A stretch of 5,224 nt of DNA from a virus (Duplodnaviria; Heunggongvirae; Uroviricota; Caudoviricetes). Made by a program: the position numbers and the translations under genes. The stretch lies in IMG/VR virus record IMGVR_UViG_2693429582_000010. One strand, 5' to 3'. Below the pieces are notes generated by a model. The model saw only the letters and a list, made by a program, of their open reading frames with translations, ran no database searches and was not told the DNA's origin. Below are positions 4,359 to 4,628 of this stretch, one piece after another; position 1 is the stretch's first letter; each line of letters starts with the position of its first letter.

Positions 4359-4628
4359 ATGAATATTTTGAGAAAGCTTATGGAGCGTCTGTGTGGTTGC
4401 GGAAAGCATGATGACTGTGAGCACGGGCAGTCGCTTACAGTACAACTGCGACTGGGACCGGCAGACATTCTGGAGTCCGATGAGAATGGCATTATCCCGG
4501 AGCAGGACAGGGTAATCACGCAGGTGGTGATACTGGATGCGGATAAAAAGCAGATACAGTGCGTGGTAAGACCGCTGCAAATCCTGCGTGCTGACGGGAC
4601 GTGGGAAAATATTGGCGGGATGAAATAG
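4359..4628 (+). CDS. Hypothetical 89-aa protein: Cys/His-rich N-terminal segment followed by a domain paralogous to the C-terminal tip of the upstream tail fibre
   Basis: ATG at 4359 lies 1 nt after the stf stop, with SD aggag at 4349-4353 (5-nt spacer), suggesting translational coupling. The track's upstream start at 4227 overlaps stf and is rejected. Product MNILRKLMERLCGCGKHDDCEHGQSLTVQLRLGPADILESDENGIIPEQDRVITQVVILDADKKQIQCVVRPLQILRADGTWENIGGMK. Aligns by eye to the stf C-terminus ([35 protein letters not shown]...[13 protein letters not shown]), sharing RLGP, I-E, NG, P-D, IT, LD, LQ, DG-W. Stop TAG at 4626-4628, then a strong terminator. Confidence 0.6.
   Translation: MNILRKLMERLCGCGKHDDCEHGQSLTVQLRLGPADILESDENGIIPEQDRVITQVVILDADKKQIQCVVRPLQILRADGTWENIGGMK

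Follow-up and report, generated by a model that had tools for sequence, protein, structure and literature searches.

The locus described here raises the question of why a lambdoid prophage should carry, in the place where phage lambda has tfa, a separate small gene that resembles the tip of its own tail fibre. The window (the whole stretch of DNA analysed, 5,224 nucleotides (nt) of the IMG/VR virus record IMGVR_UViG_2693429582_000010) is a 100% match to the chromosome of Escherichia coli O157 strain 493/89 (NZ_CP038412.1, 3289888–3295108, minus strand), and it contains an 89-amino acid (aa) open reading frame (ORF), hereafter the small ORF, directly behind a side tail fibre gene of the EPclA type. 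Sequence comparison confirmed that the small ORF is a diverged paralogue of the C-terminal domain of this fibre, the PfC (Phage_fiber_C) domain. Considering its position, its conservation and the analogy with other fibre partners, we tentatively propose that its product is expressed late and is associated with PfC-type fibre tips as a dispensable accessory protein. The features on which the comparison is based are listed below; dN/dS is the ratio of non-synonymous to synonymous substitution rates.

4359–4628, + strand: small ORF, ATG to TAG, 89 aa plus stop (PGAP WP_001023995.1)
4348–4352, + strand: Shine-Dalgarno (SD) sequence AGGAG of the small ORF, 6 nt 5′ of the ATG and within the last fibre codons (T-G-E)
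4359–4409, + strand: leader of the small ORF, residues 1–17 (MNILRKLMERLCGCGKH), with a predicted amphipathic helix at residues 3–12, under purifying selection
4410–4442, + strand: variable linker, residues 18–28, dN/dS 1.5, missing from the Salmonella orthologues
4440–4625, + strand: PfC domain of the small ORF, residues 28–89 (PF06820 positions 1–64 of 64, E 6.9e-36)
3044–4357, + strand: side tail fibre gene, EPclA type, 437 aa from ATG 3044 (PGAP WP_000268977.1)
4130–4321, + strand: PfC domain of the fibre, residues 365–428, the paralogous partner of the small-ORF domain

The fibre frame has two candidate starts, GTG 3038 (439 aa) and ATG 3044 (437 aa); fibre residues are numbered here on the 439-aa form, and RefSeq and the literature use the 437-aa form. 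The fibre stop codon, TGA at 4355–4357, is followed by the single base C4358 and then by the ATG of the small ORF, and the junction GGAGAATGACATGAA was identical across every junction variant recovered. An initial annotation, made from the letters alone, had placed this start 1 nt past the fibre stop behind a good SD sequence, and both were found as described, which supports the view that the small ORF is placed for translational coupling to the fibre. BLASTP aligned fibre residues 365–427 with residues 28–88 of the small ORF (23/63 identical, 37%; 63% positives; E 6e-13). The Smith-Waterman score of the pair, 111, was far above those of 2000 shuffles of the small ORF (27 ± 4, maximum 49; z = 21). 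Both segments matched the whole 64-position model of PF06820, with 122.9 bits for the small ORF and 119.8 bits for the fibre, the curated gathering threshold being 25 bits. The homology that the initial annotation had seen by eye, between the last ~60 aa of the two proteins, was thereby upheld, but not its exact position on the fibre: 12 fibre residues lie beyond the aligned block, so that the small ORF matches the penultimate segment of the fibre and not its extreme end.

The small ORF and its homology are already catalogued, and no new entity is added here. The protein matched the profile of PHROG 576, which comprises stand-alone 89-aa fibre-C-terminus proteins, over positions 1–89 of 89 (E 5.2e-60), and PGAP/RefSeq names this exact protein “phage tail fiber C-terminal domain-containing protein”. 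These entries and PF06820 match the small ORF over their full length, but they are domain or family labels without a function for the stand-alone 89-aa form. What is new in this analysis is the locus survey, the estimate of selection for each segment, the variation of a Cys/His cluster, the AlphaFold model, the Salmonella pair, and the absence of a Tfa domain, of a frameshift signal and of homology of a grade that would allow recombination.

Loci for the survey were picked by the fibre PfC alone, so that the sample of 80 IMG/VR loci, 79 of which were readable in full, was blind to the state of the small ORF. An intact 89-codon ORF 1 nt past the fibre stop was present in 76 loci; two copies were frameshifted, one locus had a junction deletion, and in one the ORF ran off the contig. 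The pair of genes is kept among relatives, with the small ORF intact in 76/79 fully readable loci (96%), and the places found in IMG/VR numbered 284 for the small ORF and 286 for the fibre PfC. Pooled pairwise dN/dS was 0.087 for the PfC part of the small ORF, 0.117 for the PfC of the fibre and 0.115 for leader residues 1–17. The linker behaved differently: synonymous and non-synonymous changes stood at 2:11 in residues 18–28, as compared with 20:11 in the PfC part (Fisher p = 0.007). Constraint on residues 1–17, together with that on the ATG and the SD sequence, argues that a stand-alone protein is made and used, and against a decaying remnant or a silent cassette. The leader shares with the Salmonella orthologues the motif M-x-I-[LF]-K-K-[LI]-x3-L-x-G-x2-K, a short basic amphipathic segment.

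The module is very common in strains of medical importance: of the 5,426 complete E. coli genomes, 698 carry it, at 6,820 places in all and in a median of 11 copies each. It is present in phages carrying Shiga toxin (Stx) genes of both types, Stx1 and Stx2, as well as in phage 434. In E. coli the same ORF stands behind EPclA fibres of long-tailed prophages and behind EPclB fibres of 933W/Sp5-type Stx2 phages; altogether, PfC-ended fibres with four different shafts precede it. Phages 2B8 and ASU11, which were inspected for contrast with fibres of other tips, both proved to carry the same module. A profile search of 1.84 billion representatives returned 81 matches, nearly all of them E. coli fragments or deletion fusions, and a one-genome-per-species scan returned only E. 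albertii and one contaminant contig. Beyond Escherichia and Salmonella the family is essentially absent. A 725-bp contig of Xanthomonas pisi DSM 18956 (contig_138), whose copy of the small ORF is 96% identical to the E. coli protein, is almost certainly assembly contamination. In a 565-aa protein of the representative library (P0146), four PfC-like repeats stand in tandem ahead of a collagen run and a further C-terminal region, which shows that PfC-like units can occur in tandem in one chain in other phages.

An orthologue of 79 aa, 65% identical to the small ORF, was found in Salmonella enterica, mostly subspecies salamae, behind two types of fibre. The first is a 468-aa PfN + Pf2 + PfC fibre whose neighbouring prophage genes include sodC and J, and the second is a 212-aa protein made of a carbohydrate-binding part and PfC; both types lack collagen. 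In both cases the start of the small ORF overlaps the end of the fibre gene and has its own SD sequence, and the same kind of terminator and effector cargo lies behind it. Between E. coli and Salmonella, identity was 65% for the PfC of the small ORF and 39% for the PfC of the fibre, whereas every comparison of a small-ORF PfC with a fibre PfC gave 30–38%. The distance between the two classes, as against that within each of them, indicates that the duplication is old and predates these modules, and that neither copy has been lost. The PfC tip, not the shaft, is what this old pair moves with, and judged by these identities the small copy is slower-evolving than the fibre tip. In one Salmonella prophage with the orthologous pair (L247), a Cu/Zn superoxide dismutase and a GDSL-lipase-like protein are encoded between J and the fibre gene (1205–1729 and 6193–7551).

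Fibre residues 1–110 are 90% identical to lambda Stf (orf-401), so the small ORF sits where lambda has tfa, as the initial annotation had stated. Tfa of lambda and gpU of Mu (Caudo_TAP) occupy the same position, directly past the fibre gene, and move with the distal end of the fibre as a cassette. The small ORF differs from them in that it lacks a Tfa domain, has 89 aa instead of about 190, and is homologous to the fibre tip itself: the searches that retrieved PF06820 and PHROG 576 detected no Tfa/Caudo_TAP domain in Pfam (at E up to 1), PHROGs or NCBIfam. The annotators of phage 434 labelled an 89-aa coding sequence “tail fiber assembly chaperone”. A distant match in a DNA search pointed to this labelled gene, which is the same 89-aa ORF, named by position; the matching DNA is the conserved terminator segment behind it. 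A frameshifted partial “tail assembly protein” pseudogene called by PGAP at 4629–4706, right after the small ORF, was considered as a tfa remnant and rejected: it coincides with the conserved terminator segment, and a coding relic is unsupported. The call may have come from read-through protein models such as P0005.

A deletion of an orthologue has already been published. Mondal et al. (2016) described Sp5 ORF68 (ECs1229), a small polypeptide in their account, as consisting of a phage fibre C-terminus domain (PMC5155283). The ORF of an Sp5-type IMG/VR contig is identical to that of the window at 85/89 residues (96%), with the same junction and the same terminator, and the primers used for the ORF68 deletion, given in the supplement of that paper, match the ends of the small ORF except for one extra T. 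In-frame deletion of the Sp5 fibre gene, ORF67, abolished plaques and lysogeny, whereas in-frame deletion of ORF68 gave no reported plaque or lysogenisation defect on K-12; the mutant was outside the nine non-infectious mutants and outside the groups reported as reduced or increased, and the authors class ORF68 as non-essential (PMC5155283). As a caveat on dispensability, infectivity was tested in the laboratory and on rough K-12. The settings also differ: Sp5 ORF68 lies behind an EPclB fibre (two collagen runs and a Pf2 repeat) on a short-tailed phage, and the small ORF of the window lies behind an EPclA side fibre in a lambda-like long-tailed prophage with nleC cargo.

The EPclA fibre type, as defined by Ghosh et al. 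(2012), comprises PfN, a coiled coil, collagen and PfC (PMC3368898). Recombinant EPclA expressed alone, without the small protein, was a trimer, the PfC of the fibre by itself was a trimer in vitro (size-exclusion chromatography with multi-angle laser light scattering), and heat-denatured Col-PfC refolded immediately without the small protein (PMC3368898). Together with the Sp5 deletion, these trimers indicate that the small protein is not an obligatory chaperone, which contradicts the initial suggestion of an assembly factor insofar as such a factor would be required. It differs in this respect from lambda Tfa, Mu gpU and P2 gpG, which are needed for a functional fibre: the Sp5 orthologue is dispensable while the fibre is essential, and the fibre trimerises alone in vitro. 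Since the deletion of ORF68 caused no defect, any role of the small protein should be conditional or quantitative.

The surroundings of the pair are summarized in the following rows. The prophage is lambdoid, and the window lies at its right end, adjoining yecD/aspS.

Window, gene order: J (tail tip protein, C-terminal 765 residues), lom, the 437-aa side tail fibre gene, the 89-aa ORF, a strong terminator, effector cargo
Fibre, domain order: PfN attachment domain, Ala-rich coiled coil, collagen Gly-X-Y run (about 3791–4123), PfC domain, 11-residue tail
4639–4671, + strand: intrinsic terminator hairpin, a perfect 14-nt inverted repeat with flanking A and T runs
5058–5224: start of nleC, a type III effector zinc protease (Pfam Peptidase_M85), cut by the window end

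Pfam placed PF08400 at fibre residues 3–135, PF01391 on the fibre, and PF06820 at residues 365–428. The small ORF is the final gene ahead of the late-operon terminator (fold energy −27.8 kcal/mol, z = −7.0), which is kept behind it in all loci, Salmonella included; prophage-specific effector cargo begins ~70 nt past the ORF. A second strong intrinsic terminator, with an 8-bp stem containing 7 GC pairs followed by a T run, was observed at 3006–3036, between lom and the start codon of the fibre. Because the terminators at 3006–3036 and 4639–4671 bracket the fibre gene and the small ORF, their expression probably needs Q-antiterminated late transcription, and their placement fits late-only expression; lom could be expressed separately, given the terminator between it and the fibre. 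The fibre PfC tip, the small ORF and the terminator behind it form a mobile three-part cassette.

The 42–76 nt right after the small ORF (4629–4715; the terminator and a segment ending TGTTTGTTA) were conserved in the majority of related loci and still recognisable in Salmonella. Beyond this segment the sequence is divergent, prophage-specific effector cargo, so that the segment looks like the fixed left boundary of an exchangeable effector locus. A 63-aa ORF at 4838–5029 (MPLITSSISS...) has neither a family match nor a RefSeq annotation; as phage 434 has an NleB-like pseudogene at the matching place, this ORF may be the remnant of an effector gene. Phage 434 (OL657227.1, 16734–25804) carries, besides an EPclA fibre and the 89-aa ORF, genes or gene fragments of type III effectors (NleB-like, two NleC-like and NleH-like), and, as a classical laboratory phage with this module, it is a convenient test system for the small ORF.

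The protein is predicted to begin with a short amphipathic segment that is conserved, to continue with a linker that is flexible and variable, and to end with a PfC beta-domain. In the AlphaFold2 model these appear as a low-confidence helix at residues 3–12, a disordered linker and a beta domain at residues 30–89, whose block-mean predicted local distance difference test score (pLDDT) was 75–88. The top structural match of the modelled PfC, in two independent searches, was the distal region of the phage Mu tail fibre (PDB 8ju3 and 5yvq), a weak match with 21–22% identity over 55–80 positions. Among solved structures searched by sequence, PfC had no match, and the matches obtained were for the PfN domain (9e7m) and the collagen run only.

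Homology, conservation, selection and position come from the present analysis, and the dispensability of the Sp5 orthologue on K-12 comes from the literature. We infer from them that the small ORF is a genuine, separately translated late gene, and its PfC is an old paralogue of the trimerising C-terminal knob of the fibre. The accessory protein that we tentatively propose would be made from the Q-antiterminated late transcript, coupled to translation of the fibre. It would then trimerise via its PfC, as the PfC of the fibre does; trimerisation has been measured for the fibre PfC only (PMC3368898), and the monomer model of the small ORF is all-beta. The trimer would serve as a dispensable partner at PfC-type tips, either docked as a second knob or cap, or as a helper raising the yield or robustness of assembly. 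The small protein would thus be a positional analogue, and not a homologue, of Tfa or gp38-type partners.

Several points weigh against this explanation. The AlphaFold2 model is a monomer built from a shallow alignment, with a mean pLDDT of 71.5, and only one of five models exceeded 55. A minority of copies are frameshifted in the leader (2/79, plus the clusters P0047 and L195). The Sp5 deletion had no reported defect on K-12, and EPclA trimers fold, and Col-PfC refolds fast, without the small protein. A tip-specific partner would be expected to co-vary with the fibre tip, yet the small protein is more conserved than the tip. Moreover, translation of the small protein, its trimerisation and its association with the fibre or virion are steps that we infer.

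A bolder form of this proposal, possible but rather unlikely in our estimate, is that the small protein represents a class of fibre partner not described before: a paralogue of the trimerisation knob, encoded on its own, would stack on the PfC tip or template it transiently, giving a second, more conserved distal knob. If so, it would matter only on natural hosts, such as smooth strains bearing O antigen, or under stress. A second knob of this kind would account for strong selection in the ~11 copies per enterohaemorrhagic E. coli genome and in Salmonella despite dispensability on K-12.

The alternative that survives best is unlikely as well: the small protein may be a free soluble PfC trimer with a role unrelated to fibre assembly, such as masking of receptors on debris or neighbouring cells at lysis, or some other host-directed or moron-like activity at the border of the effector cargo. 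Such a role agrees with dispensability for infectivity, with conservation exceeding that of the fibre tip, with the position as last gene ahead of the cargo boundary, and with the lack of an attachment domain such as PfN. It accords poorly with the absence of a signal peptide (an LxGC motif is present without a hydrophobic core) and with the strict linkage to fibres ending in PfC, which holds across cargo and phage types and extends to Stx2 podophages that lack neighbouring effectors; the location between the two terminators, which agrees with late-only expression, also counts against it.

Improbable to a greater degree is the “intragenomic reservoir” for fibre variation that Mondal et al. proposed after seeking a frameshift signal and finding none (PMC5155283). 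Here the small ORF would serve mainly as a spare tip cassette, recombined onto the fibre to change receptor specificity, and its protein product would be irrelevant. The absent deletion phenotype agrees with this proposal, and the median of 11 copies per carrier genome offers many recombination partners. In a rare fusion, P0061, the collagen run passes into the small-ORF PfC precisely at a 13/14-nt microhomology (3898–3911 / 4451–4464), and P0121 is a fusion of the reciprocal type. P0061, represented by four sequences, is the product of an in-frame deletion between these two sites, which share their codon phase and code for ERGPAG in the collagen run and LGPAD in the small ORF; as its contig opens within the gene, P0061 is not proof of a complete chimeric fibre. 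The two PfC-coding segments, however, are only 54% identical in DNA, and the longest stretch that they have in common is 7 nt; they therefore provide no substrate for homologous exchange within the prophage. Apart from the microhomology, no DNA repeats linking the two PfC regions were found. No fusion of collagen to the small-ORF PfC occurred among 515 IMG/VR relatives retrieved with a query that ranks such fusions first, the full-length matches being ordinary fibres only. Exchange between the copies appears possible but rare, and a silent cassette leaves unexplained the conserved ATG and SD sequence and the purifying selection on the leader, which at a dN/dS of 0.115 would be unexpected for a silent DNA reservoir or a remnant. 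The alternative tip left by cassette exchange, one of the initial suggestions, is possible but has little support, given the low DNA identity of the copies and the lack of any swapped fibre found in IMG/VR.

A second copy of distal-fibre coding sequence just downstream of the fibre gene is likewise a feature of the invertible segments Mu G and P1 C and of the variable and template repeats (VR/TR) of BPP-1 mtd. Unlike in Mu G, P1 C and e14 P, both copies are here on the + strand, without flanking inverted repeats, and no invertase is annotated nearby. The inverted repeats in the window comprise the terminator stem and one chance pair only. An invertible alternative tip was accordingly rejected, given the direct orientation, the lack of flanking inverted repeats and the lack of a Din-family invertase annotated nearby. 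A diversity-generating retroelement was also rejected: 54% DNA identity is not the near-identity of VR and TR, and no reverse transcriptase was present among the genes of the window or of the 17-kb locus L002.

Still less probable is a vestige, in which the small ORF would be a functionless duplicate, or the remnant of a longer ancestral fibre with tandem PfC units, kept only by linkage and by gene conversion among prophage copies. Proteins with tandem PfC-like units do exist (P0146, with four repeats plus collagen), some copies of the small ORF are frameshifted or fused by deletions, and deletion of the Sp5 orthologue was without phenotype. Against this stand the dN/dS of the domain (0.087) and of the leader, both as low as that of the fibre tip, the 96% of copies that are intact, and the Salmonella orthologue kept at 65% identity with its own SD sequence and an overlapping start. 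The remnant of a longer fibre envisaged in the initial annotation is contradicted by the range of dN/dS, 0.09–0.12, and by this intactness.

The initial annotation had also drawn attention to a Cys/His cluster, which it read as a small metal-binding knuckle.

4392–4424, + strand: Cys/His cluster, residues 12–22 (C-G-C-G-K-H-D-D-C-E-H), with C12, C14, H17, C20 and H22

The residues are present, but their spacing is C-x-C-x2-H-x2-C-x-H and not CxCx3H as first given. On this reading the cluster would bind zinc or iron, possibly where the three chains of a trimer meet on its axis, and the function of the protein would depend on it; T4 gp37 and gp12, two trimeric phage fibres, do hold metal ions on their axis. 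In favour of such a site, C12 and H17 were invariant in the 76 intact copies and C14 was present in 72/76, with H or Y in the other four. The full set of five residues, however, occurred in only 7/76: position 20 is Arg in 66 and Cys, the state of the window, in the other 10, and 42 copies have His at position 22, 30 have Asn and 4 have Asp. The allele of the window reads DDCEHG in this part, and the common allele DDRENG. The Salmonella leaders (MTIFKKIKHCLFGCDK, MTIFKKIKHCLSGGDK or MILFKKIKHYLSGGDK) have two, one or no Cys (C10 and C14, C10 alone, or none), and the linker is missing altogether, so that these orthologues lack most or all of the ligands. The segment is without purifying selection, residues 13–25 around the ligands were modelled as disordered (pLDDT below 50), and Pfam contained no zinc-motif match to the small ORF. 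A metal-binding knuckle is accordingly very improbable; the cluster is not conserved, and it is a lineage-specific accident in a disordered linker, not a metal site. L11-C12-G13-C14 resembles a lipobox, and a lipoprotein was considered and rejected, as residues 1–10 (MNILRKLMER) include four charged residues and have no hydrophobic core; the occurrence of H, Y or G at position 14 in some copies also weighs against a lipobox.

Least credible of all is recoding, in which a +1 shift of the ribosome, or something similar, at the stop of the fibre gene would give some fibres two tandem PfC knobs: relative to the fibre, the small ORF lies in the +1 frame both in E. coli and in the two Salmonella arrangements, in the window this frame is free of stops from 4227 on, and the stop context is TGA-C with the SD-like AGGAG just upstream, but GGA GAA TGA C contains no slippery codon, GAA in the P site cannot re-pair at +1, and AGGAG overlaps the site, whereas the SD sequence of the prfB frameshift site lies 3 nt upstream. 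With no shift-prone P-site codon and a misplaced SD sequence, a programmed prfB-like shift was rejected; chance alone would give a run of 44 codons without a stop in ~12% of cases, the small ORF has its own conserved ATG and SD sequence, and Mondal et al. likewise report no frameshift signal (PMC5155283).

As a whole, the analysis removes two ideas about this gene, the metal knuckle and the essential chaperone, and sharpens the question to why a dispensable copy of the fibre tip stays under strong selection. The module marks the boundary at which lambdoid prophages have their type III effector cargo attached. Should the small protein influence adsorption or host range, it would be relevant to the spread of Shiga-toxin and effector genes.

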